DNA of 64,000 nucleotides, taken from an uncultured Candidatus Saccharibacteria bacterium (lineage in GTDB: Bacteria; Patescibacteriota; Minisyncoccia; UBA6257; 1-14-0-10-40-38). How positions within the stretch are numbered: position 1 is the stretch's first letter; each line of letters starts with the position of its first letter. Below are positions 3,195 to 54,804 of this stretch, in pieces. Under the pieces are notes generated by a model. The model searched no databases. It was not told where the DNA came from and saw nothing but the letters and a program-made list of their open reading frames with translations. A program made the translations under genes and the position numbers. The DNA lies in NCBI GenBank assembly GCA_964434715.1, contig CAYSWC010000003.1, positions 6,652 through 70,651 of the forward strand. Direction: 5' to 3'.

Positions 3195-3323
3195 TCATCA
3201 TCGAATAACGAATCTGTTCGAATTTACGAATAATTAAATTAGTTATTCGTTTATTCGTAAGGTATTCGCTATTCGTTGATGGATACGTTTATTCGTAAAA
3301 GATTCGTAATTCGCTGATGGAGC
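3195..3323. repeat. Palindromic ACGAAT/ATTCGT word-repeat element (copy A)
   Basis: tcatcatcgaataacgaat...attcgctattcgttgatgga followed by attcgtaattcgctgatggagcg. Sister copies lie at 8253-8345 and 42777-42856, each directly after a stop codon. Confidence 0.7.
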
Positions 3324-15230: not shown

Positions 15231-18200
15231 TTATAAACAACGGGTAAACCCGCACTGCCGGCAGGAGAGACACCCTTCGCCCATTTGAAGCGGCGCGCCG
15301 CAGTCCGGACAGCCGGGCACGAGCCCATAGTCAGCGATTTGCTTAGGAACCGGATTCATATTTTCCTCTTTATGGGCCGCAACCGGCAGTAATTCTTTTG
15401 ATCCGCCGTTCATAAGAGCGGCTTTGCTTTTAGCATGCTCTTCTAAAACCTGACCAATGGCATCAGGGAGGGAGAGCACCGTGCCCTTATCAGTTAAAAC
15501 CGGCATGGGACCGCGGATGCCTTTAAGCTGTTCAATCACTGATTCCACCTTAATGCCGGAGCGGAGCGAGAGTGAGATCATCCGGCAGATTGCCTCGCTT
15601 TGCTCCTGAAAAAAGCCGCCGCTTTTGCCAATGGTCGCAAAAATCTCAAAGGGCACGCCGCGCTCATCATCATTGATGGTGATATAAAGATTGCCGTAGC
15701 CGGTTTTAACCTTATAGGTTCTGCCGCTCATGGACTCGGGACGCACTCGCGGTTCCAGCCGGCCTTTGTCAATTTTAAGATCCAACGAAGGTTCGCCGAG
15801 TTTTTTAGTGGTTGAAATCTCGGTGGGCGCGACAAGATTTTCTCCGGTTCCCAGATTGAGAATTTGGACGGTGCGGCTGCCGTCGCGGTAAACCGTACAG
15901 CTCTTGCATTTCATTTTCCAAGCCATAATATAGCCGCGAACCACATCTTCTTCGGTTGCGCTATTGGGGAAGTTGATGGTTTTGGAAATGGAATTATCAA
16001 CATATCTCTGAAAAGCCGCTTGGGTTTTAATGTGATCATCGGCCGAAATGTCCATGGCTACAACAAAAGTCCGGCGGAGTTCTTCGGGCAAATCTTTAAG
16101 ATTCTGGATACTGCCGGTTTTAATGATGTTTTCTTTAATTTTCCGGATTTTGTCTTTGGAGAATCTGTATCTGCCCAAAACCCCTTCAAAATATTTATTA
16201 AAGTAATGGTACTGCTGGCCGTCTTTATCCTGCTTAACATAAGCCAAGGCAAAGTTGGGCTCCACGCCCGAGGAGCAGTCAAGCATCATGGAGATGGAAC
16301 CGGTGGGCGCAACCGTGGTTAGGGCGGCGTTTCTCATTTTGATTTTCTTTTTTGGGAAAACGCTTAATTTGATATTAGCAAATACTCCTTTTTCTTTAGC
16401 CAATTCCCCGGACGCCTTATGAGCGGTTTCGGTAATAGCTTTCATAACCCGCTCGGCCATTTTAATACCGGCGGGAGAATTGTAAGCAATGCCGGTTTGA
16501 TACAAGAGATCGGCAAAACCCATAATACCCAAACCAATGCGGCGGTTTTTTCTTGCCAAATCAGTGACTTTTTGAACCGGAAAATCAAAAGAATCAATGA
16601 CGTTGTCCATAAGGCGCGTCGCTGTTTTGGTTACCAAGCGGAGCCGCGCCCAGTCAACCTTGCCGTCTTTAGCAAAAGCCGCCAGGTTGATGGAGCCCAA
16701 ATTGCAGTTGTCGTAGTGATGAAGAAATTGTTCTCCGCACGGATTAGAACAGTCAATCGGGCCTAAGCCCGGCAAGGGATTAGTGCGGTTGACTTCATCA
16801 ATAAAGACGATTCCCGGCTCGCCGTTTAACCAAGCATAATGGACTAGCTCATCAAAAAGCTGTTTGACCGTAATATCCACCTCTTCCACGCTGACCACGC
16901 TTCCGTTTCTTGCCCGAATGACTTTTCGCGGCTTCATTTTTTTGCCATTCCAGTTGCAGTACCACTGCTCATTAGGGCTGGTTTCCAGTTTTTTCATAAA
17001 CTCATCGGTGACTTTGACCGAGATATTGAAATTGCGGATTTCACCCTCCACTTCTTTGGAACGGATAAAATCCAAAACATCCGGGTGATCCACCTGCATC
17101 ATGGCCATGTTGGCACCGTGCCTTGAATTTTTTGTGTAGAGACCCGCATTGATCATATGCACATCTTCCACCTCAAAGTCATAGACGGCTTTTGTGCCGG
17201 TCGGCTTGATACTTTTAACTTTTGAAGGCACAAACCCCAGCCATAAATTATTTTTCTCCAGTCGTTCAGCGGCTGCGGTATTTTTTCTTTGGAGCAGAAA
17301 AGCTGTCTGTATTTGCGAGAGAACCGAGTAACTAATGGTGGTGCGAACACCGTCGTGTTTGTTCCTGATATCTTGATATTCATATCCTAAATCACGAATC
17401 GGGTGAAAAGGGAAAATCCAGCCGAAATCTTTAGTTCCCACTTTCTTCTGAATTTTCCAGGAATAACGAGACACCTTTTCATAGAATTTTTCAGTAAATA
17501 CCTTACCGATTATTGAGAGCCGATAAACCCGGCGCCATTCTCTACGCCGTTTTTCCGAGGCAATCTTAGAACCAATGCCGTTGGCCAAAAGAAGCAGCTG
17601 GAGTTGTTTTATAAATTCTTCACTCGAAGAGGCAATGCGGTAATTTTTACCATTATCGCCATCGCCGTCAAAAAAGCCAGCCACAAAAGCCGTCTGAACG
17701 CTTGAAGGAGAAGTTAGAATTTTTTCGGGAAGAGCTATTTCCCAAGAATGCTTTTTAAGCAGACCGTTCTCGGATAAGAATTTTTTAACCCAAAGCGAAT
17801 TAATCTTTAATCGCCGGCAATTTTCACCCGCCGTCTTAGCAATGAGCGGATTGACGGCAAACAACTCGTTGACTAATTCAATCGTCTTATTTTGAACCTC
17901 AATATCGTCAGGAATTACCAAGCCAATACCTTGAGCATCATTCCAGCCATCGGCAAAATACCAGCCCAAGAAGTATCCGAGTTCCTCATTTAAAATCTCC
18001 GGCTGTCTTATTGCTTTTAATTGCAGACTTGTATATTTGCTTTTTTGATAACTTACTTTTTGTAACGGCAGCTTTCCGAAATTATTATTTTCATCACCCA
18101 ATTTGAGCAATAGCGTATCCCGCCCACCAAGTTCTTTTACCATTTTTAAAACAATTTGATCATTTTCAATCACCGCCACCTTGTGATTAGGGGTTAATTC

Positions 18201-18917
18201 AATTGAAAACCCGGAATCCAAAGTCAATTTAACTGTCTCTTGAATGCCGTTAGAAAATACTTCGGTTACCTTGTTCCAGCCTTGTTCGGTAAAAGTTTCA
18301 TCACCCGTGTGGACTTGCTCAATCGGAATCAATCCTCGCTTAGTGACAATTAAAGTCCCCTTGGCAAAACATTGTTGCTTGATCATCCCGAAGGCTTCGT
18401 TATAAACCTTTAAGAAAGATACCGGGCCCGAGGAAACGCCGCGGGATTTTTTAGTCGGGCTTAAAGCCGGACGAAGATGGGAAAAATCAAAGCCCAATCC
18501 CGAACCAGCCTGCTGTAGCATAGCCGCGTCTTTCAAAGTCTGGAAAATACTCTCCATTGAGTCTAAGACCGGGAGCACAATGCAGTTGGCAATCAGAGGC
18601 GTGCCGGTGCCGACATTGGTTAAAGTGCGGCCGGCTGGCGTATATTCCTTGCGGGACATAATTTCAAAGAAATCCCGCTCGGTTTTCTCAATAAATTTCT
18701 TGTCGGCCCCGTAATTTTTCTCCACTTGGGCTAGAGCGCGGGAAACCCGATGAAACATTTCTGTCGGCGACTCCTGTTTGCCGTCATCGTGCGTAAAGAA
18801 ATAGCGCTTGCGCATCATTTTAAGCGCGTTTTCCGAAAAAGACTCGTTAATTAAGTCGTCCGCTGATTTTTGCGGGAACTTAAGTTCCCGCCGCCGAAGC
18901 TTGGTAACCCGCCGCAT
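15231..18917 (-). CDS. nrdJ: Class II (adenosylcobalamin-dependent) ribonucleotide reductase NrdJ, interrupted by an intein
   Basis: The exteins carry NPCGEQ (active-site Cys/Glu), SGPVSFLKVYN and a C-terminal Cys4 ribbon CPDCG..CLSCRQCG. An in-frame 415-aa insert lies after ..GMIKQQ. Confidence 0.9.
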   Translation of the reverse strand: MRRVTKLRRRELKFPQKSADDLINESFSENALKMMRKRYFFTHDDGKQESPTEMFHRVSRALAQVEKNYGADKKFIEKTERDFFEIMSRKEYTPAGRTLTNVGTGTPLIANCIVLPVLDSMESIFQTLKDAAMLQQAGSGLGFDFSHLRPALSPTKKSRGVSSGPVSFLKVYNEAFGMIKQQCFAKGTLIVTKRGLIPIEQVHTGDETFTEQGWNKVTEVFSNGIQETVKLTLDSGFSIELTPNHKVAVIENDQIVLKMVKELGGRDTLLLKLGDENNNFGKLPLQKVSYQKSKYTSLQLKAIRQPEILNEELGYFLGWYFADGWNDAQGIGLVIPDDIEVQNKTIELVNELFAVNPLIAKTAGENCRRLKINSLWVKKFLSENGLLKKHSWEIALPEKILTSPSSVQTAFVAGFFDGDGDNGKNYRIASSSEEFIKQLQLLLLANGIGSKIASEKRRREWRRVYRLSIIGKVFTEKFYEKVSRYSWKIQKKVGTKDFGWIFPFHPIRDLGYEYQDIRNKHDGVRTTISYSVLSQIQTAFLLQRKNTAAAERLEKNNLWLGFVPSKVKSIKPTGTKAVYDFEVEDVHMINAGLYTKNSRHGANMAMMQVDHPDVLDFIRSKEVEGEIRNFNISVKVTDEFMKKLETSPNEQWYCNWNGKKMKPRKVIRARNGSVVSVEEVDITVKQLFDELVHYAWLNGEPGIVFIDEVNRTNPLPGLGPIDCSNPCGEQFLHHYDNCNLGSINLAAFAKDGKVDWARLRLVTKTATRLMDNVIDSFDFPVQKVTDLARKNRRIGLGIMGFADLLYQTGIAYNSPAGIKMAERVMKAITETAHKASGELAKEKGVFANIKLSVFPKKKIKMRNAALTTVAPTGSISMMLDCSSGVEPNFALAYVKQDKDGQQYHYFNKYFEGVLGRYRFSKDKIRKIKENIIKTGSIQNLKDLPEELRRTFVVAMDISADDHIKTQAAFQRYVDNSISKTINFPNSATEEDVVRGYIMAWKMKCKSCTVYRDGSRTVQILNLGTGENLVAPTEISTTKKLGEPSLDLKIDKGRLEPRVRPESMSGRTYKVKTGYGNLYITINDDERGVPFEIFATIGKSGGFFQEQSEAICRMISLSLRSGIKVESVIEQLKGIRGPMPVLTDKGTVLSLPDAIGQVLEEHAKSKAALMNGGSKELLPVAAHKEENMNPVPKQIADYGLVPGCPDCGAPLQMGEGCLSCRQCGFTRCL
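17127..18371 (-). mobile_element. Intein with LAGLIDADG homing-endonuclease domain in NrdJ (aa 183-597)
   Basis: Starts with Cys (CFAKGTLIV) and ends ..GLYTKN followed by Ser. LAGLIDADG motifs LGYFLGWYFADGW and FVAGFFDGDGD. The penultimate residue is Lys rather than the usual His. Confidence 0.85.
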
Positions 18918-20037: not shown

Positions 20038-20112
20038 GGTGGGTGTAGCTTAGTGGTAAAGCGCCGCTCTGTGGCAGCGGTGATGAGGGTTCGATTCCCT
20101 TCACCCACCCCA
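20038..20112 (+). tRNA. tRNA-His (anticodon GTG) with encoded G-1 and CCA
   Basis: G-1, then GTGGGTG/CACCCAC acceptor, C73, D arm GCTT-AGTGGTA-AAGC, anticodon arm CCGCT-CTGTGGC-AGCGG, 3' CCA encoded. The 3' end overlaps the recombinase stop region by 12 nt. Confidence 0.9.
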
Positions 20113-21717
20113 TCGTGAACGAATAGAGGCAAGAGCTTCAGTTTGTGTTGTATTCATCGGCATTTTATTCGGTTCTAACCTTAAGTATTCTTTTTCCAAT
20201 TCAGGGTAGCCATTTCCAATCTCGGCAAACCATTCATTTGGTTCAATAACGAGCTTTTGGTCTTTAATTATCGGTGTTTTGCCGAGAGCAAGTAAGATTT
20301 CTTTCTTCAGTTCTAACCCTTCCTTGCCTTTTGCCATCAAAAACGCTTTACGGGCATAAGTAGCGAAACTAAATGTTTTTTCAGTAAGTTCAAGCCAACG
20401 CTCGGCTCTCGTTTCGGTTTCCCGCAAGTTTCCTTTTAATTGCGTGATTTTGCTTTGTAGAGTATTTTTCTCGGCAATAAAAGTTTCATCATCAATGAGA
20501 TTGCGGTATCTCATCTTGGTAAGTTCATCCAGCTCGTTTTGGGCTTGCACCACCGCCTTGTGCCGCATTTCGTAAATCTTTGTCCTGTCCTCAATCTCGG
20601 TATCATTCTTTTTATTTAAGCCCTCTAACGCCCACTGCAAAAACTCTGGCAAGATGGTGTATTTTTCTATTTCTTTTTCAATTTGCAATTCCAGAGCATT
20701 AACAGGTATAACTTTCTTTTGCGTGCAAATAACTTTTTTAGTTTTTCTCGTGCAATGATAATAGATAAATTCCTTTATCGTGCCAGTTCTCTTTATGAGC
20801 TTTCTTTTGGTCTCGGCAGTATAAAGACAACCGCACTCCTCGCACCGAATAGCCCCCGTAAAAGCGAATGTGTGTTTTTGTGGTCTTGGTTTACCCTCTC
20901 TACCAAGTATCATTTGCACTCGGTCAAATTCTTCAAGCGTTATCATCGGCTCGTGCTTACCTTCATATTGTTTGCCGTCCCATTCTAAAATCCCCGCATA
21001 GAACAAATTAGTGAACATTCTATAGATACCGCTCAAGGACAATTCTTTCCCGCCCTCCCTTTTGTATTTTATCGTTTTCAACCCCCACTCATTATTTGCA
21101 ATCTCTAAAATTTTCGGCGGAGTATAACTGCCCGTAAGCATTAAATCCCACATTTTGCGGACAACATTAAATCGTTCTGCATCTTTAGTTATTACTTTTT
21201 CGGCTTTATCGTTCAAGTATCCAAGAGGAGCACGGGAAGGAAGCCAGCCCCGTTGGAGTTTTCCTTCCACGCCTCGTTTCGTATTTTTTCTTAAATCAAT
21301 AATAAATTGGTTCGCCATTCCGCTTTCAACATTGAAAAGTAGAACATTGTCGTCTGGCAGATATTGTCGGTCTATAGTTTGAATTGATTTGAGTATCGCC
21401 CGTTGCAAAAGCCAGCTTAACTTGCCGCTATCAATCGGGTTGCGAGATAAGCGGTTTATCTGCCAGCACAAAATCCCGTCCGCCTCGCCTTTTTCAATTC
21501 GCTCTATCATCTCGTCAAAAATTGGGCGGTTGTTTGGCTTCTTCGCCGATTTTGCCTCGGTATAGATTTTCTTAATATTCAAATTCAAATCACTGGCGAG
21601 CTGTTTGAGCCGATTTATCTGGTCATCAATGGATTGCACCTGTCGGTCTTCGCTCTCCGATGACTTTCTGGCGTAAATGAAGTATTGGATTTTAGTTTGT
21701 TTATCGTCTCGGTTCAT
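20101..21717 (-). CDS. Large serine recombinase (integrase)
   Basis: 538 aa. Resolvase catalytic domain (YARKSSESEDRQ..SIDDQ), recombinase domain, zinc ribbon CEECG..YYHC and a C-terminal coiled coil. Confidence 0.9.
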   Translation of the reverse strand: MNRDDKQTKIQYFIYARKSSESEDRQVQSIDDQINRLKQLASDLNLNIKKIYTEAKSAKKPNNRPIFDEMIERIEKGEADGILCWQINRLSRNPIDSGKLSWLLQRAILKSIQTIDRQYLPDDNVLLFNVESGMANQFIIDLRKNTKRGVEGKLQRGWLPSRAPLGYLNDKAEKVITKDAERFNVVRKMWDLMLTGSYTPPKILEIANNEWGLKTIKYKREGGKELSLSGIYRMFTNLFYAGILEWDGKQYEGKHEPMITLEEFDRVQMILGREGKPRPQKHTFAFTGAIRCEECGCLYTAETKRKLIKRTGTIKEFIYYHCTRKTKKVICTQKKVIPVNALELQIEKEIEKYTILPEFLQWALEGLNKKNDTEIEDRTKIYEMRHKAVVQAQNELDELTKMRYRNLIDDETFIAEKNTLQSKITQLKGNLRETETRAERWLELTEKTFSFATYARKAFLMAKGKEGLELKKEILLALGKTPIIKDQKLVIEPNEWFAEIGNGYPELEKEYLRLEPNKMPMNTTQTEALASIRSRWGG

Positions 21718-25553: not shown

Positions 25554-25608
25554 CATAAATTTTTATTACAACTTGCCTAAACCTTTAACGAGGCATGGCA
25601 CAAAAAAT

Positions 25609-25752
25609 CCACTGCGACATAGAGACGGCCACCCGTCTCCCATCATGTCGCAGTGGTCGGTAGCCCGAAAGGGTTATCGGGCAGTTCCGAAAGGAGCTGT
25701 CGGGGGTAACGGATGGCCTTTTCTGTTACTCCAAGAAAAAACCACTGCGACA
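25609..25752 (+). promoter_or_regulatory. Highly structured leader / operator region upstream of mod
   Basis: 12-bp stem CCACTGCGACAT (25609-25620) / ATGTCGCAGTGG (25645-25656) enclosing GAGACGG-CCAC-CCGTCTC. Two GAAA-tetraloop hairpins follow. CCACTGCGACA is repeated at 25741-25751 just before the mod ATG. Confidence 0.5.
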
Positions 25753-38548: not shown

Positions 38549-38956
38549 ATGCTCCAACTATTATTTATCTTTAGCGATTGGGCGATTCTGCTTTTGCGGC
38601 TGGTTTTGGGTTTGATTTTTATTGCCCACGGCTGGCCCAAGATTAAGGATTTAAAAACCACCGCCCAAGGTTTTCAGGGTATGGGTTTTAAGCCCGGCCG
38701 ACTTTGGGGCACGGTGGTGGCGCTCGCGGAATTTGTAGGCGGACTTTTAATATTCTTCGGGCTTTTTACCCAAATAGCTGCCTTGATTTTGGCGATTCAA
38801 TTTATCGTCATTATGATTTGGAAATTTAAGATAAAACAAAAGCTGGTTGGCGGTTATGAGTTGGACTTGATTTTGTTGGCGGCACTTTTGGTTTTAGCCG
38901 CCAGCGGCAGCTCGCTTTTCTCCTTAGATAATTATTTCCAAATTTACTTATTCTAA
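38549..38956 (+). CDS. DoxX family membrane protein
   Basis: DWAILLLRLVLGLIFIAHGWPK and four TM helices, typical of DoxX. Confidence 0.8.
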   Translation: MLQLLFIFSDWAILLLRLVLGLIFIAHGWPKIKDLKTTAQGFQGMGFKPGRLWGTVVALAEFVGGLLIFFGLFTQIAALILAIQFIVIMIWKFKIKQKLVGGYELDLILLAALLVLAASGSSLFSLDNYFQIYLF

Positions 38957-41089
38957 GTGGATCGCTTTTTGAAAAGTTTCTAGTTTTTCCTTGAGCAACG
39001 GATAATTTTTAAGCTCCCCATCTTTCTCTATAATTCGGCTGGCGGCTTCGCGGGCAGTTTTGATAAGCTCCAGATTATTTAAAGCTTTCATAGCTAAATC
39101 GGGAAGGCCGGTTTGTTTTTCGCCTAGGAATTCTCCGGGTCCGCGCATTTGTAAATCCAGTTCGGCGAGTTCAAAGCCGTTTTTGGCGCGAAGCAAGGCA
39201 TCAAGCCGTTCTTTTACCGACTGGCTGTTTGATTCGGTAAAGAGGAGACAGAACGACTGGTGTTCGCCGCGGCCAATGCGCCCGCGAAACTGATAGAGCT
39301 GGGCCAAACCGAAATGTTCAACGCCTTCAATAATCATTATCGTGGCATTGGGAATATCTACGCCGACTTCAATTACCGAGGTAGAGACCAGGATATCGGT
39401 CAGACGGTTCTTGAAGTCGTTCATGATTTTTTCTTTTTCTTTACTTTTTAATTTTCCGTGAAGCATAGCAACTTTGAGATCAGGGAAAACTTTTTCGGAG
39501 AGCTTTTCAAATTCTTCCTTTACCGCCTTCATTTCTAATCGCGAATCAGCACCAATTCTCCCACTAATTACACTAATATTAGTGGCATTCGTGGGCGTTT
39601 CGTGACTATTAGCGACCTCTATTCTCGGACAGATGACAAACACTTGCCTCCCCTTTTTAATCTCCTCGCGCACAAAGGCGTAGGCCTTGCTTCGGTTTTC
39701 CGGCGCCACCACCTTGGTAATGATGGCCTTTCGGCCTTTGGGCAGTTCGTCAATAATGGAGAGATCAAGATCGCCAAACAAAGTGAGCGACAAGGTGCGC
39801 GGGATTGGAGTAGCGCTCATTGATAGAAAATGAGGCAACGGTGTCCTAGTTCCTAATCCCTGATTCCTAGTTCCTAAATTCGCTCGTTGCTCAACTCCGA
39901 ACCTATGTTGTTCATCTACAACGATGAGACCTAAATTATTGAAAGTTACGCCTTTCTGAATTAAAGCATGAGTGCCGATAATTATTTTGATTTCTCCGGT
40001 GGCAATCTTTTTAGCTGTTTCCTTTTTTAATTTTTGGGTAAGTCCGCCTAACAAGAGTCCAACTTCAAGGCCCCACTGTTTTAAAAGATTTCCGAAAATT
40101 TTATGGAGCGTTTGATAGTGCTGGCGGGCGAGAACCTCGGTGGGCGCCATAAAAGCGGCTTGGAGATTTGACTTTGCGACCAGCAGGGCGGCAATGGCGG
40201 CAATCACGGTTTTCCCTGATCCCACATCGCCTTGAAGCAGGCGGTTCATCGGCCGTCCCCGCTTTAAGTCATTTAAAATCTCCGCCAAGCTTCGCTTTTG
40301 AGAATTAGTGAGTTCAAACGGCAGGACCCCACCGATTTTTTTAAGTCCTTCTTCGTTCCATTCAATAACCGGCGCTTTTTCTTGGGCGAGACGCGAACGC
40401 AATTTTAAGTTGTTGAGCTGAAGCAAAAATAGATCCTCAAAAGCAAAACGTTTTTTAGCCTGTTCGGCCTCGGTTAAGACGCGCGGGAAATGAACTTTTT
40501 TAATGGCCGTATTTAAATCCGGCAATCTGTAGGCGGCTAAAATTTCAGCCGGCAGAAAATCTTGGATAGGCGGAAGAACTTTAAGAATCGGCTTAATCAA
40601 ATACCGGAGTCCCCGGGAAGTTAAGCCCCTAGTTTCCGGATAAACCGGAATCAGTCCGGCCGTGTGCTTAATCTCACCGCCGCGGAGCGGTTCATAAGAA
40701 GGGTTGGAGAGATAAATTTCCTTGTCAGTTAATGCGACTTTGCCGGACAAATTCGCGCGCATGCCGACTCGGAGAATCTTTCCGATATAGGGCTGGTTAA
40801 ACCAGACGGCCTTGATGCCCCCAGAGTCATCAACAATAATAGTTTCGACTAGTAGCATTTTGCGGCGCCAAGTGCGCCGCAAATCAATTTTTCTAATCAC
40901 GCCGCTTACCGTGGCCGACTGATTAAGTTTCAAATCCGCGATTTTTACGATCGTAGAAAAATCGTCATAGCGAAAGGGAAAATGCCACAGAAGATCTTGA
41001 ACTGTTTCAATTTTAAGCTTCTGGAGTTTACTGATAAAATTCGGCCCCAATCCGCGAATCCGAGCCAGTTCGGTTTCCAAAGTTATCAT
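38948..41089 (-). CDS. recG: ATP-dependent DNA helicase RecG
   Basis: 713 aa. Wedge/OB N-terminal domain, GDVGSGKT, DEQHRFG, SATPIPRT, QLYQFRGRIGRG. Carries extra in-frame repeat-derived segments. Confidence 0.9.
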   Translation of the reverse strand: MITLETELARIRGLGPNFISKLQKLKIETVQDLLWHFPFRYDDFSTIVKIADLKLNQSATVSGVIRKIDLRRTWRRKMLLVETIIVDDSGGIKAVWFNQPYIGKILRVGMRANLSGKVALTDKEIYLSNPSYEPLRGGEIKHTAGLIPVYPETRGLTSRGLRYLIKPILKVLPPIQDFLPAEILAAYRLPDLNTAIKKVHFPRVLTEAEQAKKRFAFEDLFLLQLNNLKLRSRLAQEKAPVIEWNEEGLKKIGGVLPFELTNSQKRSLAEILNDLKRGRPMNRLLQGDVGSGKTVIAAIAALLVAKSNLQAAFMAPTEVLARQHYQTLHKIFGNLLKQWGLEVGLLLGGLTQKLKKETAKKIATGEIKIIIGTHALIQKGVTFNNLGLIVVDEQHRFGVEQRANLGTRNQGLGTRTPLPHFLSMSATPIPRTLSLTLFGDLDLSIIDELPKGRKAIITKVVAPENRSKAYAFVREEIKKGRQVFVICPRIEVANSHETPTNATNISVISGRIGADSRLEMKAVKEEFEKLSEKVFPDLKVAMLHGKLKSKEKEKIMNDFKNRLTDILVSTSVIEVGVDIPNATIMIIEGVEHFGLAQLYQFRGRIGRGEHQSFCLLFTESNSQSVKERLDALLRAKNGFELAELDLQMRGPGEFLGEKQTGLPDLAMKALNNLELIKTAREAASRIIEKDGELKNYPLLKEKLETFQKAIHLE

Positions 41090-41210: not shown

Positions 41211-42773
41211 ATGATATACTTTGAATTGTCAAAAATGTTTCTCTTTAAACCCAAAACACCGAAGAAAATTCTTTTTGTGGCGACTGAGTCCGAACCTTTT
41301 ATTAAAGCCGGCGGTTTAGGCGCGGTTATGTTGGCGCTCCCCAAGGCGCTCAATAAACTGGGTTTGGACGCGCGCCTGATGATTCCCCGCTATGCCGGCA
41401 TTGATTTGGAAAAATTCCGGCTTCAAATGGAGCTTGAGGGTTTGGAAGTGCCGACTGATGCTGCCGGTGAAAACGAGAACGAACCTACTCACCTTATTTG
41501 CAATGTTCGGAAATATATCCCCAAAGAGAATGGCAGCAATCGCTTGCCAGTTACCACCTATTTTCTGGAAAATCTGGAGTATTATGAAAAACGTTCCAAT
41601 ATCTACGGCTATAGCGACGACGCTATTCGCTGGGCACTGCTTTCGCGCGGTACTCTGGAATTTTTGCGTTTCTCGGAGTGGCTGCCGGAAATAATTGTCG
41701 CTTCAGACTGGCAAACCGGTTTCTTGTGTAATTACCTGCGCACCAACTATAAAGACGATGAGCGTCTAGGCCGGATTGCCAGCATTTTCATAATTCACAA
41801 CTTGTATTATCAGGGTATGTTTGATCACCGCTTTGTCTCGGAGATGGACTATGATGACGGTCAATCACCCTTGCCGGCTTTTTTTAATCCGCGGCTTTTA
41901 AAGGTGAACGGCATGCGCCGCGGCATTAGGCACGCTGATTTAGTAAGCACGGTTTCGCCCACTTACGCCAAGGAGATTATGACGCCTGATTACGGCGAAC
42001 TTTTGGACGGCTTGCTTAGAGAACGGCGCTCACGGGTTTACGGCATTTTAAACGGCATTGACTATGAGGAGCTTAATCCCGAGACTGACCGTTATCTTAC
42101 CCAGAATTACGGACCGCACAATTTGGATCTGCGTCTCAAAAACAAACTGGAACTTCAGGCGCGCTTCGGATTAAATCAGGACAAAAACGCTTTTGTAGTT
42201 GCCATTGCCTCTCGTTTTAGCGAGCAAAAAGGGCTTGATCTTTTATTTTCCGTAACTGACGTGATGCTCCGGGAGCTTGATATGCAGGTCGCGATTTTAG
42301 GCAGCGGCGAAGGCAAATACATGGGCTTTTTTCAGGATTTGGAAAAACGCTATCCGGGCCGCGTCGGCACCCATTTAAGTTTTGATCCAGTCATGCCCCA
42401 TCTCATCCACGGCGGAGCCGATAGCGTGCTTATTCCTTCCAAATTTGAACCAGCGGGACTGCTTCAGCTTGAAGCCATGCGCTACGGCGCGCTCCCAATT
42501 GTCCGAGCAACCGGCGGTCTCGCTGACACGGTTAAGGATTATAACGCGCGCGAGAACTCCGGCACTGGTTTTGTTTTTAAAGATTTTGACTCCTCGGCCA
42601 TGATGGTGGCCGTGGTGCGAGCTTTTGAAGTTTTTCATCATCAAGCCGAATGGCGCATGATTCAAAAAAGAGCCATGGCCGAAGATTTCTCCTGGGACAA
42701 ATCAGCCCGAGATTACGCGCATCTTTTTACTTTGGCCAATGCTTTCCGAAGGCGGGAAATAGAGAAAGAATAA
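41211..42773 (+). CDS. glgA: Glycogen/starch synthase (GT5), copy 1
   Basis: KILFVATESEPFIKAGGLGAV, IIHNLYYQG, PSKFEPAGLLQLEAMRYG. The true start may be the MFLFKP codon at 41235. Confidence 0.9.
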   Translation: MIYFELSKMFLFKPKTPKKILFVATESEPFIKAGGLGAVMLALPKALNKLGLDARLMIPRYAGIDLEKFRLQMELEGLEVPTDAAGENENEPTHLICNVRKYIPKENGSNRLPVTTYFLENLEYYEKRSNIYGYSDDAIRWALLSRGTLEFLRFSEWLPEIIVASDWQTGFLCNYLRTNYKDDERLGRIASIFIIHNLYYQGMFDHRFVSEMDYDDGQSPLPAFFNPRLLKVNGMRRGIRHADLVSTVSPTYAKEIMTPDYGELLDGLLRERRSRVYGILNGIDYEELNPETDRYLTQNYGPHNLDLRLKNKLELQARFGLNQDKNAFVVAIASRFSEQKGLDLLFSVTDVMLRELDMQVAILGSGEGKYMGFFQDLEKRYPGRVGTHLSFDPVMPHLIHGGADSVLIPSKFEPAGLLQLEAMRYGALPIVRATGGLADTVKDYNARENSGTGFVFKDFDSSAMMVAVVRAFEVFHHQAEWRMIQKRAMAEDFSWDKSARDYAHLFTLANAFRRREIEKE

Positions 42774-42776
42774 GAA

Positions 42777-42856
42777 AATCATCAACGAATAGCGAATTTC
42801 GTACGAATGAACGAATTCGTAAATTAGGAATTGATTCGTTATTCGCTGATGGAGCG
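42777..42856. repeat. Palindromic ACGAAT/ATTCGT word-repeat element (copy C)
   Basis: aatcatcaacgaatagcgaat...gattcgttattcgctgatggagcgg, between the glgA stop and the GH57 start. Confidence 0.7.
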
Positions 42857-42862
42857 GGGCAT

Positions 42863-44356
42863 ATGAGGTGGGCTAATTTTCTACATATTTATCAACCGGC
42901 TGAACAGCAGCCGGATATTTTGGAAGCCATCGTAGTCCAAAGCTACCGGCCGATTTTAACTCATCTTAAAAAAAATAAACGTCTGAAATTGACCTTTAAT
43001 ATCAACGGCTCCCTTTTAGAGCTTTTTGACAAATATGGCTATCAGGATCTTATTGATTGTCTAAAATCAGCCGGCGAAGACGGCCGAGTGGAATTTACCA
43101 GCTCCGCCAAATATCATGCCTTTCTGCCTTATCTGGAGAAGGACGAAATAATAAGACAAATTCAGATTAATGATGAGACTAATAAATTTTTCTTGGGCAA
43201 AGCTTATAAGCCCCAAGGATTTTTCCCGCCCGAGATGGCTTATAAAGAGGAGCTGGCACCGATTGTTGAAGAACTGGGCTTTAAATGGATTATTCTGGAC
43301 GAAATTGCCGTGAGCGGCGAGCCCGGACAAGTTGATTACAAGAAAATCTATAAAATCAAAAACGCCAACCTGCTGGTTTTTTTCCGCGAGCGCCGGCTCT
43401 CTAATTTAATTATGAGTGCCGTGGTGCGTTCAGAGGAGACTCTCCGGGAGGCGATGAAAGTTGATTTAGCGAGCGGCCGTTATCTGGTAACCGCCATGGA
43501 TGGCGAAACCTTTGGTCATCACCGGCCGGGCTTGGAGAAAATGCTTTTTGATGTTTGGAATGCGAAAGATTTTGAGCTGATTAAAATTTCAGAGATCCCT
43601 GAATTTTATCAGGATGTTAAAGAAGTTTCGCCGGTTAAATCCACTTGGGCGTCGTCCAAAGAAGACATTTTAAAAGGCATTCAATTTTTATCCTGGTCTG
43701 ATCCGGAAAATATTATCCATAAGTGGCAGTGGGAGCTCACGCATTTGGTTTTAGACGAGATTTATGAGCTAGACAAAGACCAGCCGCGTTATAATTTAGT
43801 GCGTAAAAAAATGGATTTGGCGCTCGCGAGCGACCATCTTTGGTGGGCCTCGGCCAAACCTTGGTGGAGCATGGAAATGATTGAAGACGGCGCTTATCGC
43901 CTGTTGGATACTTTGCGGCATATTCCCGAGGTTAGCCGCGAGAAACTGGAGCGCGCGCGCGACTTATACGAAAAGATTGTTTCCACCAGCTTTAACTGGC
44001 AGAGAACCGGGAAAATCCGGACCATGATGTGGGAGCAGAAATCAATTTTACGGATTCCCTTCCGCGATCGCACCATTGGCCGGGGCGGAGCCGAAGGCGG
44101 CGTCTATTATGCTTTTATAGATATGATGAAGCGGCTCGAGAAAGAAGCGGCCGCTAAAGGCGAATATGAAAAAGCCATTCTCTGGCGGGACGCTATTTTC
44201 AAACTGGAAAACAAGCTGGATATTTACGATACTATTAACGCCATTGATCTCCTGCGGGTGGAAATTCCCCACGAGGAGGTTGAGGCAACTATTCAAGAAT
44301 ACAAGGAAAAATACCGGAAGATCCGCGGCGGCCAGCCGGAACAAAGAGGTTCTTAA
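42863..44356 (+). CDS. Glycoside hydrolase family 57 enzyme (alpha-glucan processing)
   Basis: ATG at 42863 (MRWANFLHIYQP..). HIYQP, MDGETFGHH and its position between two glgA genes fit GH57. The ORF-track start at 42650 reads through the repeat. Confidence 0.7.
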   Translation: MRWANFLHIYQPAEQQPDILEAIVVQSYRPILTHLKKNKRLKLTFNINGSLLELFDKYGYQDLIDCLKSAGEDGRVEFTSSAKYHAFLPYLEKDEIIRQIQINDETNKFFLGKAYKPQGFFPPEMAYKEELAPIVEELGFKWIILDEIAVSGEPGQVDYKKIYKIKNANLLVFFRERRLSNLIMSAVVRSEETLREAMKVDLASGRYLVTAMDGETFGHHRPGLEKMLFDVWNAKDFELIKISEIPEFYQDVKEVSPVKSTWASSKEDILKGIQFLSWSDPENIIHKWQWELTHLVLDEIYELDKDQPRYNLVRKKMDLALASDHLWWASAKPWWSMEMIEDGAYRLLDTLRHIPEVSREKLERARDLYEKIVSTSFNWQRTGKIRTMMWEQKSILRIPFRDRTIGRGGAEGGVYYAFIDMMKRLEKEAAAKGEYEKAILWRDAIFKLENKLDIYDTINAIDLLRVEIPHEEVEATIQEYKEKYRKIRGGQPEQRGS

Positions 44357-44357
44357 A

Positions 44358-45833
44358 ATGAAAATTTTATTTGTCGCATCAGAATTAACCCCAATTGCCA
44401 AAGTCGGGGGCTTAGGAGATGTAATCGGTGCTTTACCCAAGGCGCTTAGCCGGCTGGGAATTGAAAGTGAGATTGTAATGCCCCGCTATCATTTTATTCC
44501 GCTCAAAACATTGAGATTGATTAAAAGAGGAATTAAAATTCAATTTGCTAAAACCAGTGAAAAAATTACGCTTTACCAATGCGCGCTTCCTAAAGCCAAC
44601 GTTAAAGTTTTTTTAATTGAAAATAGAAAATATTTAAGCACCGGGCCGGGACCCTATTTCGAATCAAGCGGCGTAGCCGGAATGAAAAAAGAGATTGAAC
44701 GATTTATCTTTTTCTCCAAAGCGGTTTTTGTTTTGCTCCGGAAGCAGATTTTAAAAAGTGATATTATCCATGCCAATGACTGGCACACAGGCGCGCTAGT
44801 AGCGCTAGCGCGCAAATCCGAAATCAGAAATCCCGAAAAGGGACGTGGTCCCCTCGGGACTTTACGTCCGAAATCCGAAACACCAAAAATTATTTTCACC
44901 ATTCACAATTTAGGCAATCAAGGCCGATGGAATGTGGAAGAAATTAATCAATGGTTTTGGTCAAAAAATGAAAAGCCGATCTTCAAAAAGTTTGGCAATG
45001 ATTACAATTTGATAGCCGAAGGGATACTTAATGCCGATTGGGTAACTGCCGTGTCTCCCGCTTACTCACGGGAAATTTTAACCCGCGAGTACGGCCAGGG
45101 TTTGGAAAAAATTATTCAATCGCGGCGCCGAAATTTAACCGGTATTTTAAACGGCATTGATTATGATTTTTGGAATCCTCAAAAAGACCGCTTTCTTTCT
45201 CAAACCTATTCAGAGAAGACCGCGAACTTAAAAAGCATTAATAAATCAGTGCTCCAGCGATCGCTTAAATTAAAAAATGATTTAACCCTTCCCCTTTTTG
45301 GGCTGGTGGCGCGGCTCACCGATCAAAAAGGCATTGATTTAATTACGGCCGGCATCAAAGCTTTCCTTAAAAAATATCCGTCTCAATTTGTTTTTTTAGG
45401 ACGCGGCTCAACTGATTACGAAACCGCCCTTCTTAAATTAGCTAAAGAATTTCCGCAGGCCGTCTACACCAAGATTGGTTTTGACGAGCCACTGGCCCAC
45501 CGCATCTACGCGGCAAGCGACTTTTTCCTGATGCCTTCCCGCTTTGAACCGAGCGGCTTGGGACAGATGATTGCCATGCGCTACGGCACTATTCCAGTTG
45601 TCCGGTCAACGGGCGGACTTAAAGATACGGTGAGACATCTCAAAACCGGATTTGTTTTTAAGCATGCTAAATCCGAAGAATTTTGGCAAATAGCGGGACT
45701 GGCTTGGAACTATTACCTTAAACATCAGGAAGAATTATCAGTTATTCAAAAAAATTGTTTTAAAGAAAATTTTGATTTTAACCGTTCTGCCCGCGAGTAC
45801 AAAAATCTCTACGAAAAAGTTTTGAAATTATAG
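44358..45833 (+). CDS. glgA: Glycogen/starch synthase (GT5), copy 2
   Basis: ATG at 44358 (MKILFVASELTPIAKVGGLGDV), TIHNLGNQG, PSRFEPSGLGQMIAMRYG. Contains a 57-bp in-frame insertion. Confidence 0.9.
   Translation: MKILFVASELTPIAKVGGLGDVIGALPKALSRLGIESEIVMPRYHFIPLKTLRLIKRGIKIQFAKTSEKITLYQCALPKANVKVFLIENRKYLSTGPGPYFESSGVAGMKKEIERFIFFSKAVFVLLRKQILKSDIIHANDWHTGALVALARKSEIRNPEKGRGPLGTLRPKSETPKIIFTIHNLGNQGRWNVEEINQWFWSKNEKPIFKKFGNDYNLIAEGILNADWVTAVSPAYSREILTREYGQGLEKIIQSRRRNLTGILNGIDYDFWNPQKDRFLSQTYSEKTANLKSINKSVLQRSLKLKNDLTLPLFGLVARLTDQKGIDLITAGIKAFLKKYPSQFVFLGRGSTDYETALLKLAKEFPQAVYTKIGFDEPLAHRIYAASDFFLMPSRFEPSGLGQMIAMRYGTIPVVRSTGGLKDTVRHLKTGFVFKHAKSEEFWQIAGLAWNYYLKHQEELSVIQKNCFKENFDFNRSAREYKNLYEKVLKL
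44814..44880. repeat. Hairpin element with 10-bp direct-repeat flanks inserted in frame in glgA copy 2
   Basis: AAATCCGAAA at 44814-44823 and again at 44871-44880 (57 nt = 19 codons apart), enclosing TCCC-GAAAA-GGGA and GTCCC-CTC-GGGAC hairpins. Encodes ..SEIRNPEKGRGPLGTLRPK.. Confidence 0.6.
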
Positions 45834-46900: not shown

Positions 46901-47305
46901 GTTCTCGTAGTGATTTATTACGCAATTTCTCAATGACTCTGTCAAATAAGCAGGTAAATTAATAGCTACCAGATCAATTCTCCATCCGGTTTTATCCTTG
47001 ATTAGCTCCTGTCGGTGGCCGGCATATAAAGAGGCAGTACGCCTCAATTTTTTTAGTTTGGCGGCAGTTAAGTGTTCTTCCGGAGTCAATAACTGCCAAC
47101 TTTTGTCATCGTCATTGCTATAGTCATAACTTCTCAAGGCTTTTACTTCGACAAACACGAGGGCCTTGTCCTTATCTTTTGCCACAATATCCAATTCCCC
47201 CCACGGCTTACGGAAATTCCGCTCAATAATAAAGTAACCTTTATCTTTTAAGTATTCGCAAGCCAGATTTTCACCTAATTTGCCGATTTCGGATTTCTGT
47301 GTCAT
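46895..47305 (-). CDS. yraN: YraN (UPF0102) family endonuclease-like protein
   Basis: Start MTQKSEIGKLGENLACEYLKDKGY..ERNFR..GELDIV..VFVEVK is the YraN pattern. The ORF-track start at 47425 is unsupported. Confidence 0.75.
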   Translation of the reverse strand: MTQKSEIGKLGENLACEYLKDKGYFIIERNFRKPWGELDIVAKDKDKALVFVEVKALRSYDYSNDDDKSWQLLTPEEHLTAAKLKKLRRTASLYAGHRQELIKDKTGWRIDLVAINLPAYLTESLRNCVINHYENL

Positions 47306-47379: not shown

Positions 47380-47862
47380 ATGTTCCACAGCCAACAACCG
47401 ATACAAGACAAAAAATTCCTCTCATATGAATACATCAGGGGCCTGGTAGAAGGCGAGGGATGCTTTTCATTTTCGGCTGGAAGAGAAAATAAAAATGGCA
47501 CAAAATATAAGCTTCCAGCTTTTATCATTGGTATGCATGAACGAGACAGGGAGTTATTGAAAATGGTATGCGATAGCTTGGGCTTAAAGAGCAAGATTTA
47601 CAATAGACCAGCATGGAGAGGAGATGGAGTTAATCGCGGAAGGTCGGTCATTCTCATTGTTAGAGATTTTCAACAACTAAAAGATATTATAATTCCACTT
47701 TTCTACAAAAAATTGAAAGGACATAAAGGTAAGCAATTTATAGAATGGCTGGAGAAAATAGGAAGCGATCCAGATATATCAGATAGATTCAAGTCGCTTT
47801 ATAGAATTTATAAATGGGGTATATATGATGGTCCGAAATTCCTCAATAGATTTATAGATTAA
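47380..47862 (+). CDS. Free-standing LAGLIDADG homing endonuclease (single-motif type)
   Basis: YIRGLVEGEGCFSF is a classic LAGLIDADG motif, and 160 aa is typical of homodimeric enzymes. Confidence 0.8.
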   Translation: MFHSQQPIQDKKFLSYEYIRGLVEGEGCFSFSAGRENKNGTKYKLPAFIIGMHERDRELLKMVCDSLGLKSKIYNRPAWRGDGVNRGRSVILIVRDFQQLKDIIIPLFYKKLKGHKGKQFIEWLEKIGSDPDISDRFKSLYRIYKWGIYDGPKFLNRFID

Positions 47863-48029: not shown

Positions 48030-48250
48030 AAGTTTTGCAGGATTTTGCAGGATTAATCCTGCAAAATCCTGCAATAATCCGGCAAAGCTAATCCTGCAAA
48101 ATTAATCCTGCAAAAATCCTGTCACCCTACGAGTGATCTCTCATGCCTACGGCAGACCTCCCGAAGGGATTGGCCGCAGGGAGACAATTATTCTGCAAAG
48201 CTAATCCTGCAATCCTGCAAAAATTTGACGAATCCTGCAAAAGATTGTCC
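48030..48250. repeat. Iteron-like array of AATCCTGCAAAA
   Basis: At least 8 direct copies (starting near 48056, 48066, 48091, 48104, 48115, 48203, 48211, 48231) and 2 inverted copies (TTTTGCAGGATT near 48035 and 48045), around a GC-rich ~60-nt core. Spacing is irregular. Confidence 0.7.
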
Positions 48251-52647: not shown

Positions 52648-54804
52648 ATGGCTAATCCAGAAAAATTGTCGTCCCCATCAGGGCCGCAGAAAGAAGGAGT
52701 TCCAGAAAAAAAAGAGCTTTGGGTGCCAGCAGAACTAAGGGAAGAAAAGAAGTCCACCCCGAAAACGCCGGAACCTTCCAGGATTGATCCGGCAATAACG
52801 TGGGGCCAGGTGGAATCTAAAACACCGATACCTCCGAAAGAGGAAGCTAAACCCAAGAAAGAAGAAGCTAAATCTAAAGAACTTTGGGTGCCGCCGGAGA
52901 TAGAGTCGCCGCGGATGGAGGATATAAGACAAGCACTTCAAGAAGCTGAAGTTGAAGCCAAAGAAGGCAAGGCCAAAGTAGAAGCGGTCGGCGGAACGCC
53001 GGAAGAGATGAAAGGGGCCGAGGTAGCTGGAGAGAAAAGAATAACAGGCGTCAAAGAGGCAAGCGAAACCGCCATTAAAAACAGCATCCCGATGTTTGAG
53101 GGCCGGATTAGGGTTCTTAGAGAAAAAGTTGCCGAGACATCTAGGCGGGGCAAGGAGACAGAAGTGCTTAAACTTGAAGAGCAAATCCGAACTTTTGAAA
53201 GACGCAAAAGGGAGTTTGAATTGGAGCCGGAGAGGCGGAGATTGCGTGAAGCCGTGAAAGAAGCACAAGCTCGCGGCGTTGAATCGGAAATCTTAAAAGC
53301 CGAAGAACGTCTTCGTGCCGTTGAAGGCGAGCAATATAAAACCAGACAAAAGTCGGCAGCCACCGCCGTCGCTAAAGAGTCGGCAGAAGAAAAACCGGCA
53401 ACAACCCCAGAGGCTCCTATTGACAAACTGCCGCCGGAAACAGAAGATTTTCTTGGTAATGTTGAAAGACGCAGATTGCGCGAAGCCGAAAGACCAAAAG
53501 AAAAAGCTCCGGCCGCCGAAGGGGTCCGGCCGCCGGAAGTTGAGAAGGCAGAAGGCGAAAAACTAAAGGAAAAGACGCCGGAGGTAAAATTCACCACCGC
53601 CGCCAATCAAAAACTTTTTGATAAACTGCCGCCGGAAACAAAAAATTTTCTTGGCCGGCTCTACGAACGGGTTCATCCCACATTCATTGATCGCGCTAAG
53701 ATTTGGTTCAATGATCATCTTCCCATTTTTGGTTCGGAACGCTCACCTTTTGGCTTAAAACATCATGAGAAAAAAGCCGCAAAGATTGCGAGCGAACTTG
53801 AAGCAACCAATAGCGAAATTAAAAGCAAAGAAAGTCAGCTGGGAACCTATGAGGCAACAGTAAAATCGCTTGAGGCAAGAGGCGGCGAGTTTTCAGCCGG
53901 GGAAAGAGCAGTTGCCGAGCGGGAACGGCGTGAATTAGAGCGAGACCTTGAAGCTCTTAAAAACAAGCGCGATCGCGAGCAAACAGAGCTGGAATACCGA
54001 AATAGCAAAAAAGCCATCTATGAAAATAAGCGTAAAGAAATAGTTGAGGATGTTTCCGGACGCATCAAGGAACGGCTCAAACCCTACGAAGAGAAAATAG
54101 AAGATTTACGCGCCCGCAAAGAGCAGTTTGACGCCGAAGCTAAAGCTTTTGCCGAAAAAAAAGAGGCTTTTGCCAATCAGATAAAAACCATTGAGGAAGA
54201 AAGGAAAAAAGCGGTTTTCCATTTTGAACGGCAAAGATTGGGTAGAGACATTAAAGAATTAATGAAAGAACTGCGGCTAAGCGAGAATCTCTTCAAAGAA
54301 CGTCTGGGAAGCCGTATTAAAATTGAACTTCAATTAGTTAATTTAAATCGTAAAGCTGGTCACTGGCGCGATACCCTAAATGAATTCGCCAGAGTTTCGC
54401 AAAGAAATGTTGCCTATGAGCAAGTCGGCGCCCGCGCCGAGGAAGGGCTGGATTTGAAACGGGCACAAGTATTGCGTGAACGCGGGACAGCGGCCGCGGC
54501 TCCGTCGGGGACCGAACAGGCAAAGGCACGAGAAGCTAAAGAAGTTAAACCGCGTACCATGTCGGTGGGGGCCTATCTTGGCCAGTGGAATAAATATTTT
54601 GGCAGTGAACTCCCGGTGCGTGAAGACGTCTTTTTTAAAACCTTGGGCGTGAGCGACCAGGAAAAACCTCTAAGCGAGTTAGGGTTTGATCTGCGGACTT
54701 ATTATGATTTTATGAGAAGTCACGGCAATACTGATCGCCGTCTCACTAAGCCCAAGCTTATAGAAAAAATTAAAATCCTAGAAACTTTCATTACTAAACC
54801 TTAA
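52648..54804 (+). CDS. Large Glu/Lys/Arg-rich coiled-coil protein (718 aa)
   Basis: Low-complexity helical sequence. Internal repeats KELWVP[AP]E[LI] (x2) and DKLPPET[EK][DN]FLG (x2). No enzymatic motif. Confidence 0.55.
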   Translation: MANPEKLSSPSGPQKEGVPEKKELWVPAELREEKKSTPKTPEPSRIDPAITWGQVESKTPIPPKEEAKPKKEEAKSKELWVPPEIESPRMEDIRQALQEAEVEAKEGKAKVEAVGGTPEEMKGAEVAGEKRITGVKEASETAIKNSIPMFEGRIRVLREKVAETSRRGKETEVLKLEEQIRTFERRKREFELEPERRRLREAVKEAQARGVESEILKAEERLRAVEGEQYKTRQKSAATAVAKESAEEKPATTPEAPIDKLPPETEDFLGNVERRRLREAERPKEKAPAAEGVRPPEVEKAEGEKLKEKTPEVKFTTAANQKLFDKLPPETKNFLGRLYERVHPTFIDRAKIWFNDHLPIFGSERSPFGLKHHEKKAAKIASELEATNSEIKSKESQLGTYEATVKSLEARGGEFSAGERAVAERERRELERDLEALKNKRDREQTELEYRNSKKAIYENKRKEIVEDVSGRIKERLKPYEEKIEDLRARKEQFDAEAKAFAEKKEAFANQIKTIEEERKKAVFHFERQRLGRDIKELMKELRLSENLFKERLGSRIKIELQLVNLNRKAGHWRDTLNEFARVSQRNVAYEQVGARAEEGLDLKRAQVLRERGTAAAAPSGTEQAKAREAKEVKPRTMSVGAYLGQWNKYFGSELPVREDVFFKTLGVSDQEKPLSELGFDLRTYYDFMRSHGNTDRRLTKPKLIEKIKILETFITKP

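Follow-up and report, generated by a model that had tools for sequence, protein, structure and literature searches.

A probable in-frame insert of nested repeat DNA in a glycogen synthase gene of a Patescibacteria genome

In a 64,000-nucleotide stretch of contig CAYSWC010000003.1 from an uncultured Candidatus Saccharibacteria bacterium (hereafter the window), the glycogen synthase gene glgA2 holds a hairpin-prone segment that is absent from most of its orthologues or replaced there by unrelated sequence. An earlier note on this DNA had described the segment as similar to a miniature inverted-repeat transposable element (MITE) that had duplicated its target site. Our analysis points instead to a genuine insertion into glgA2, most likely translated, that is built of two nested kinds of repeat DNA, a 7-bp tract and a 36-bp core; we give this reading a probability of roughly 70%. 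Three points about the insert are of note: the loop that holds it seems to be a recurrent hot spot, tract and core are nested in one another, and the DNA is conserved across non-sister lineages in a manner that hints at mobility.

Structure of the insert and of its loop in GlgA2

GlgA2 falls among the GT5 glycogen/starch synthases, with the Pfam domains PF08323 (Glyco_transf_5, 7e-56) and PF00534 (Glycos_transf_1, 3e-14) and with glycogen and starch synthases as its best solved-structure matches. The KxGGL, DWH, HNL and FEPxGL motifs are invariant in the GlgA2 alignment. Within the open reading frame (ORF) at 44358-45833, the 10-mer AAATCCGAAA occurs at 44814-44823 and again at 44871-44880, in frame and 57 bp (19 codons) apart, as the earlier note had reported; the hairpins that it listed, TCCC-GAAAA-GGGA and GGACGT/GGTCCC-CTC-GGGAC/ACGTCC, are present as well, and the translation likewise places the insert between the DWHT and TIHNL motifs. 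The insert is in frame and contains no stop codons. Its peptide reads ..KSEIRNPEKGRGPLGTLRPKSE...

Written in units, the insert DNA is AAATCCG AAATCAG AAAT[CCCGAAAAGGGACGTGGTCCCCTCGGGACTTTACGT]CCG AAATCCG AAACACC AAAAATT, where the outer brackets enclose the 36-bp core. Once the core is deleted, the 7-bp register runs on without a break in the window, in the homologous insert of L088 and in a distant GlgA gene, L133, both described below. The 57-bp spacing is the sum of the 36-bp core and three 7-mers (21 bp); the two 10-mers are thus adjacent tract units that flank the core, and the proposed target-site duplication is not supported. Exact 10-mer direct repeats spaced 10-100 bp apart are frequent in the window (51 distinct, against 7.2 +/- 2.5 in Markov-1 simulations), so the AAATCCGAAA pair is one of many and the class as a whole is non-random. 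Two folds are available to the insert (Table 1). The 35-nt palindrome, into which the L088 homologue folds at minimum energy, pairs the outer stem AAATCCCGA / TCGGGACTT (44828-44836 and 44854-44862) around the inner stem GGGAC-GTG-GTCCC, with GGGAC at 44840-44844 and GTCCC at 44848-44852. The alternative hairpin uses the same bases, and the two are mutually exclusive. The core alone folds at -15.3 kcal/mol.

Comparison with orthologues bears out an insertion of hairpin-prone repeat DNA. Among 178 GlgA loops surveyed, most GlgA genes have a DWH-HNL distance of 33 residues and most Patescibacteria glgA2-like genes one of 23-34, compared with 45 in the window's GlgA2. The loop of the other glgA in the window (41211-42773) is indeed shorter, although by 12 residues rather than the 11 stated before (DWQ-HNL, 33 versus 45). 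When the loop is trimmed to the part from seven residues after DWH up to FTIHNL, it comprises 29 residues here versus 9-18 in orthologues at 55-63% identity. No insert is found in this loop in P0004, P0008-P0013 and P0015, while an unrelated palindrome of CGCGGAA / TTCCGCG units, denoted as type B, occupies it in P0002, P0003, P0005, P0006, P0007 and P0016. The window's own element, denoted as type A, is carried among the closest orthologues by L088 only. Descent of type A from type B, or the reverse, is unsupported, as the likeness between them is no better than that of shuffled controls. Unrelated, strongly folding palindromes lie in the same loop of L082-L085 (z = -3.4 to -6.7), and strongly folding double hairpins in that of L098 (z = -4.9) and L102 (z = -5.2); the insert-free loop of L087 still holds a 10-bp palindrome, AAAACGTTTT. 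The frame is kept without stops in every called insert-bearing orthologue, a sample that consists of intact called genes and is therefore biased towards a preserved frame. All carriers preserve the frame, and the insert is therefore most likely translated.

Two further low-complexity inserts were observed in other GlgA loops, one in P0002 (L082, about 870-970; AEDNAEKRGKLLSF, which again consists of CGCGGAA units) and one in P0016 (L166; SPVKSRRGGTTW). With inserts in other loops too, the DWH-HNL loop is the commonest landing site and not the sole one. The contig of the closest partial relative, L090 (64% identity over residues 177-488), stops inside the DWH-HNL loop at positions 1-60; the end of this low-coverage contig is a TCTCACG / TCTCACA 7-mer tract with an in-frame stop. 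A HMMER search with a 65-residue fragment against 1.84 billion cluster representatives found the insert only in P0001, the public protein that is identical to GlgA2; as clustering at 50% identity hides close relatives, this result says little on distribution. A scan of contigs from genome collections returned, among the matches listed, only distant GlgA genes (at most 42% identity).

In the AlphaFold2 model of GlgA2 (mean predicted local distance difference test score, pLDDT, 92; predicted template modelling score, pTM, 0.90), residues 157-173 have pLDDT below 50 and lie in the N-terminal domain between the helix at 142-153 and the strand at 177-182 that leads to the HNL motif. The model thus presents the insert as a low-confidence loop of about 20 residues at a structurally permissive surface position. 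Being in frame, stop-free and located in a permissive loop, the insert appears to be tolerated, as had been suggested before. An assembly chimera was ruled out as its source: a second assembly (L001, ENA ERZ27284378) encodes an identical GlgA2 protein and matches the element region at 78/78 bases, and the contig of L088, from another sample set, bears a homologous insert.

Conservation of the insert and related inserts elsewhere

Over the whole gene, DNA identity between the window and L088 is 58%, third codon positions agree at 37% and the proteins are 55% identical, whereas the 72-nt block shows ~85% identity with 11 differences and no indels. The best 24-codon window over the insert, which ranks top in the gene, reaches 85% in DNA and 96% at third positions; with other boundaries, the values are 81% for the insert and 57% for the gene. 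Identity drops sharply at the CGCAAAT and CGAAAC ends. Nonsynonymous changes account for 7/9 of the codons that differ within the insert, and one stem pair has changed in a compensatory manner (A44836/T44854 in the window, T/A in L088). By these comparisons, the insert is conserved as DNA and not as peptide. In a neighbour-joining tree with 200 bootstraps, the window falls into a clade (95%) with P0002-P0006 and P0008, which carry type B or no insert, and L088 pairs with P0016, a carrier of type B, at 98% bootstrap. According to this tree, the window and L088 represent non-sister lineages. Considering that the DNA is conserved far above its host gene across two such lineages, the simplest interpretation is that type A postdates their split, probably through acquisition or overwriting once the genes had diverged, or else that it is kept as nucleic acid. 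Type B copies are 63-75% identical to one another, about level with their genes, and the well-supported sister pairs P0002/P0004, P0006/P0008 and P0007/P0009 differ in whether type B is present. We also considered the insert as the target of a diversity-generating retroelement, which was rejected since the substitutions are not adenine-specific.

The units of the insert recur at unrelated places. A distant GlgA gene at another Patescibacteria-type locus, L133, carries an independent element at 4137-4203, in a different loop after PLYEKI, that has the same 67-nt geometry; its flanks, AAATTAGAAA and AAATTCGAAA, show the same motif, and its 36-bp GC palindrome core is unrelated in sequence. The motif AAATYCGAAA is found 8 times in the window versus 1.7 expected and 7 times in L133 versus 0.38 expected, and in both its sites lie mostly inside long intergenic hairpins of 7-mers. 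As the motif recurs at sites unrelated to the insert, it is part of the element and not of the target, which again argues against a target-site duplication. One intergenic hairpin, at 59389-59522, bears 4/8 of the window's AAATYCGAAA sites, and 16/16 bases of the insert's right end, TCCGAAATCCGAAACA, match the arm of this hairpin at 59490-59505 on the minus strand. The 11-mer AAATCCCGAAA occurs twice in the window, in the glgA2 insert and in an insert of GyrA only (expected 0.10). The shared motif and the 16-base match indicate that the glgA2 insert and the hairpin at 59389-59522 draw on the same pool of repeat units. A further match to AAATCCGAAA at 47287 (minus strand) was dismissed as a coincidence; it encodes the conserved KSE(I/L)GK N-terminus of UPF0102, which is present in L088 too.

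The repeat unit is particular to each intergenic hairpin in the window. A family with ACGAAT-type units and conserved ends (TCATCAACGAATAGCGAAT ... GATTCGTTATTCGCTGATGGAGCG) has three copies, at 3196-3319, 8255-8338 and 42780-42851; the copy before the GH57 gene has a GGAG at its end, some 8 nt before the ATG at 42863, and may supply the ribosome-binding site of that gene. Another unit type forms a dense direct and inverted array of TGCAGGATT / AATCCTGCA at 48033-48231, beside tRNA genes.

In-frame hairpin inserts are also present in two other genes of the window, GyrA and RecG (Table 1). The DNA of the GyrA insert folds strongly (z = -3.7) and holds a 30-bp double hairpin that is found in L167 and L084 as well. 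In RecG (38948-41089, minus strand), the insert coincides with a DNA palindrome at 39560-39595 (z = -3.8). These two inserts suggest that in-frame hairpin inserts are a property of this genome that extends beyond glgA2. When codons were shuffled in 32 genes, perfect GC-rich hairpins of at least 6 bp were modestly enriched (20 versus 11.5 +/- 3.4), but this test is blind to the 5-bp stems of the glgA2 insert and carries little weight. The C-terminal domain of GyrA (59526-60716, minus strand) has a second small insertion, a tandem peptide, relative to solved GyrA structures. Separately, the GyrA gene (59523-63563, minus strand) and the ribonucleotide reductase gene (15231-18917, minus strand) contain one large intein each, with a LAGLIDADG_3 endonuclease domain.

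The glgA genes of L167 and L168 provide filled and empty alleles. They are 99% identical outside one gap, and their difference is a clean 30-bp double hairpin, TCTCCTTTCGGGAGATCTCTCGAAGGGAGA, that L167 carries in the same GlgA loop, after GAAAT, within an A-rich tract whose period resembles that of the 7-mers. The junction shows no duplicated bases. The double hairpin (in sequence form TCTCCNNNCGGGAGATCTCNCGAAGGGAGA) has near-copies in the GyrA insert of the window (27/30) and between genes in L084 (25/30, and 28/30 to the GyrA copy). Judged from the two sequences, this pair, the only one of its kind available for such elements, is direct evidence of a recent gain or loss of such a hairpin in this loop.

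Origin of the insert

The insert would thus consist of an A-rich tract of AAATCCG-type 7-mers, the units that also build intergenic hairpins, split by the 36-bp GC palindromic core. Such elements may land widely and persist only where the frame is kept, no stop arises and the loop is permissive. The loop of GlgA2 may be a hot spot in that it tolerates extra residues and in that the A-rich DNA coding for it is similar to the A-rich tracts that host GC cores. The insert is most likely without benefit to the enzyme, that is, selfish or neutral DNA. Because no duplication is present in L167/L168, template switching during replication or single-strand transposition of the REP/IS200 type would fit the insertion step better than a cut-and-paste MITE. 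Judged from the shared units and the architecture, the element would belong to a dispersed mobile family.

Several observations weigh against this account. A second full 72-nt element or core was found neither in the 64 kb of this genome that were examined, nor in 1.53 Mb of fetched loci, nor in viral contigs; an nhmmer profile of both insert copies retrieved no further copy in the 1.53 Mb, scans of viral contigs for the type A core and the type B arm gave no match, and Rfam returned only noise below threshold for the insert. No transposase candidate is linked to the element. Type A is carried by two genomes only, the phylogeny is a neighbour-joining tree only, and the evidence for translation is the preserved frame. 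The insert's own hairpin is no more stable than composition-matched shuffles (z = -0.35, -0.43 and -1.9 for three stretches), and the high conservation of the DNA could reflect function instead.

The MITE-like transposon suggested earlier, in which a 47-bp hairpin element entered a single AAATCCGAAA site and duplicated it, would account for the perfect 10-bp direct repeats around a hairpin-bearing segment, and removing one repeat together with the interior leaves ARKSETPKIIF, about the length of the shortest orthologue loops (P0015, P0022). The L088 copies of the 10-mer are 8/10 identical, as an old duplication could explain, and the window does contain a dispersed hairpin family with conserved ends. 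Nevertheless, the same motif flanks the independent core of L133 at an unrelated site and builds intergenic hairpins, and the spacing is that of three 7-mers plus 36. The inverted repeats, moreover, are not terminal but internal (44828-44836/44854-44862 and 44841-44846/44864-44869), with direct 7-mer units at the ends; no second copy exists in the window or the fetched loci, and the sole before/after pair shows no duplication. A MITE origin therefore seems quite improbable to us. We also regard it as unlikely that a native variable loop grew locally, through 7-bp slippage and quasi-palindrome template switching with vertical inheritance and no mobility. Local growth would suit the tandem 7-mer structure, the widely varying loop lengths among orthologues, the palindrome in the insert-free loop of L087, the lack of a second full copy in any sequence searched and the private unit of each intergenic hairpin in the window; however, it cannot by itself yield ~85% DNA identity and 96% third-position identity between non-sister lineages that are saturated at silent sites, and it leaves units and 11-16-mers common to other loci of the same genome, as well as a near-identical 30-mer in three different genomes and genes, to be explained.

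A functional nucleic-acid element within the ORF, either an mRNA hairpin for ribosome pausing or stability or a protein-binding DNA palindrome, would be consistent with the almost invariant third positions, the mostly nonsynonymous changes, the concentration of substitutions in hairpin loops and the compensatory pair at 44836/44854 (A/T to T/A). Such a role is very improbable, given that most orthologues lack the element or have unrelated sequence in its place, that its stability does not exceed shuffled controls, that it has no Rfam match and that covariation between two sequences is anecdotal. Hardly credible is the idea that the insert is removed as a tiny intron or intein-like segment, or that the 7-bp tract acts as a frameshifting switch for phase variation, even though two large inteins do occur in the window (ribonucleotide reductase and GyrA) and gain or loss of a 7-bp unit, not being a multiple of 3, would switch the frame. 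Size and the missing motifs exclude an intein or intron: 19-24 residues are far too short for an intein, and neither Hint nor intron features were seen (Pfam finds glycosyltransferase domains only, Rfam nothing). The frame is kept without stops in every called insert-bearing orthologue, although these are intact genes by selection, so removal from mRNA or protein, which the earlier note had entertained, finds no evidence, and two to three imperfect units on each side of the core are a poor substrate for slippage. Beyond the nested insertion that we favour, a wider hypothesis is conceivable but tentative. Patescibacteria may share a pool of ultra-short hairpin elements, with 30-36-bp GC cores in A-rich 7-mer tracts, that travel from one lineage to another and insert time and again, with no duplication of the target, where A-rich DNA encodes the same loops of essential enzymes (GlgA, GyrA, RecG). 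Mobilised by some enzyme or by template switching, they would be homing-like in-frame parasites, and the element of the window and L088 would have been shared horizontally.

Genomic surroundings and comparison with known systems

Table 1. Coordinates of the insert, its parts and related features (window positions unless another locus is named)
Feature	Position	Strand	Basis
glgA2 (GT5 glycogen/starch synthase, 491 amino acids), host gene of the insert	44358-45833	+	ORF, translation, Pfam
Complete inserted element, the block conserved as DNA with L088 (CGCAAAT...CGAAAC), 72 nt	44811-44882	+	Alignment to L088
Left part of the 7-bp tract (AAATCCG AAATCAG AAAT), holding the first 10-mer	44814-44831	+	Sequence, register analysis
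36-bp GC-rich palindromic core CCCGAAAAGGGACGTGGTCCCCTCGGGACTTTACGT, 12 codons	44832-44867	+	Register analysis
Right part of the 7-bp tract (CCG AAATCCG AAACACC AAAAATT), holding the second 10-mer	44868-44891	+	Register analysis
35-nt palindrome	44828-44862	+	Inverted-repeat search
Alternative hairpin GGACGT GGTCCC CTC GGGAC TT ACGTCC	44841-44869	+	Minimum-energy structure of the window sequence
Long intergenic hairpin of GAAATYC 7-mers, between gyrA and a solute-binding protein gene	59389-59522		Minimum free energy -45.2 kcal/mol, z = -4.4
Hairpin insert in the GyrA C-terminal domain, ~25 amino acids, in frame	60150-60245	-	32 residues versus 7 in the best-matching solved GyrA (8s7k)
Palindromic insert in RecG, 22 amino acids, NSHETPTNATNISVISGRIGAD	39545-39610	-	22-residue gap versus T. 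maritima RecG 1GM5
Free-standing LAGLIDADG gene, window	47380-47862	+	
Free-standing LAGLIDADG gene, L083	6167-6685		
Free-standing LAGLIDADG gene, L085	3030-3515		
Free-standing LAGLIDADG gene, L088	2062-2508		

The glgA2 gene is part of a cluster in the order glgA1 (41211-42773), GH57 (42863-44356), glgA2, CofD and UPF0102. The order is complete in L083 and kept in the parts of L082, L084 and L085 that their contigs cover; because of this conserved gene order, the glgA2 genes of L082-L085 are taken as true orthologues. In L088, there is no CofD gene downstream of glgA2. The closest proteins with a source name come from metagenome bins of Patescibacteria (candidate phyla radiation). In four of the loci examined, a free-standing LAGLIDADG endonuclease gene adjoins UPF0102 downstream of the glycogen genes, an unusual position for a homing endonuclease without an obvious intron or intein host. 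In L084, a duplicate of the first 37-38 nt of GH57 lies ~150 bp upstream of the gene's real start (790-985), and ~480 nt between GH57 and glgA2 (2330-2830) hold no called gene.

Elsewhere in the window, a perfect 165-nt inverted repeat (10540-10704 and 12874-13038) surrounds a gene for a trypsin-like peptidase (11076-12530, minus strand), and one of its arms runs into the beginning of a GIY-YIG ORF (10267-10683). An invertible segment, an inverted duplication of recent date and an assembly artefact are all candidate explanations of this repeat. The RNA genes of the window are 11 tRNA genes and a LOOT RNA (RF03000, 65.7 bits; 25574-25701, plus strand), which lies directly upstream of a gene pair for a DNA methylase and a helicase. 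A large serine recombinase gene (20101-21717, minus strand) adjoins tRNA-His and tRNA-Phe within a stretch of lower GC at 20-32 kb that is possibly an integrated element. In an ORF of 718 residues without a Pfam match (52648-54804), GCCGCCGGAA recurs with a 99-bp period at 53430-53628, suggesting a tandem protein repeat of 33 residues.

If our reading of the glgA2 insert is correct, the streamlined genomes of Patescibacteria tolerate, and even translate, selfish hairpin repeats in core enzymes, and one surface loop of GlgA serves as a recurrent landing pad. Such inserts inflate apparent protein divergence. The short contigs of the closest relatives, among them that of L090 which ends in the loop, fit with repeats breaking assemblies, and such repeats could in principle also yield spurious low-complexity ORFs.

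Among known systems, the Rickettsia palindromic elements (RPEs) are in-frame inserts in unrelated genes, described as compatible with how the host protein folds and functions (review PMC10969869). The likeness to RPEs is that palindromic repeat DNA adds an extra peptide in frame to conserved housekeeping genes, here glgA2, RecG and GyrA within one 64-kb window. The insert shares their behaviour in being in frame, stop-free and absent from orthologues, in occupying a permissive position and in belonging to a set of inserts that affects several unrelated genes. RPEs differ in that they are ~150 bp long and form defined multi-copy families with a conserved peptide, whereas the present element is a 72-bp composite of tract and core whose peptide is not conserved (7/9 changes nonsynonymous). 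RPE-like therefore denotes a behavioural class and not homology; given the length and the host lineage, homology to RPE-1 to RPE-10 is unlikely.

Short GC-rich hairpin elements are also known from mitochondria, such as the GC cluster of yeast var1 and the double-hairpin elements of Allomyces. Like the present inserts, the mitochondrial elements are very short GC-rich double hairpins on an AT-richer background, mostly intergenic, sometimes in frame within coding sequence, and polymorphic in presence or absence. Their design seems to be shared by the 30-bp double hairpin of L167, GyrA and L084 and by the two mini-hairpins of the core. However, they are organellar and unrelated in sequence, and the mobility of the bacterial elements is putative. 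Repetitive hairpin-forming elements have likewise been described in sponge mitochondria (PMC2800124).

REPs and REPINs are palindromes with a GTAG or CGTC tag that are mobilised by RAYT transposases (PMC3733652). The present element resembles them in its palindrome of 20-40 bp and in the CGTC at one end of the alternative hairpin (ACGTCC), but REPs are extragenic, high in copy number and accompanied by a RAYT gene, while the one described here lies inside a gene, has a single copy in 64 kb and so does not qualify as a REP or REPIN. No RAYT/Y1 transposase was found among the window ORFs that were scanned, which were part of the total. Bacterial MITEs such as Correia, ERIC and RU are small, hairpin-forming and occasionally intragenic with in-frame fusions (PMC10969869; PMC2759123); unlike them, the window element shows no terminal inverted repeats and no site-specific target duplication. 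No second copy of it was found in the 64 kb of this genome covered or in 1.53 Mb of fetched loci. In the mitochondria of Nematomorpha, inverted repeats also lie within translated coding sequence (PMC6649704), but there both arms encode conserved protein, whereas here the extra loop sequence is absent from orthologues. In the literature searched on Patescibacteria, the candidate phyla radiation and Parcubacteria, no description of such inserts was found. Taken together, the insert in glgA2 seems to be a tolerated and translated insertion of repeat DNA that behaves like RPEs and is of a kind known from Rickettsia and mitochondria. It would offer a tractable bacterial parallel to RPEs and mitochondrial GC clusters, in which the L167/L168 pair can be used for studying insertion without duplication.

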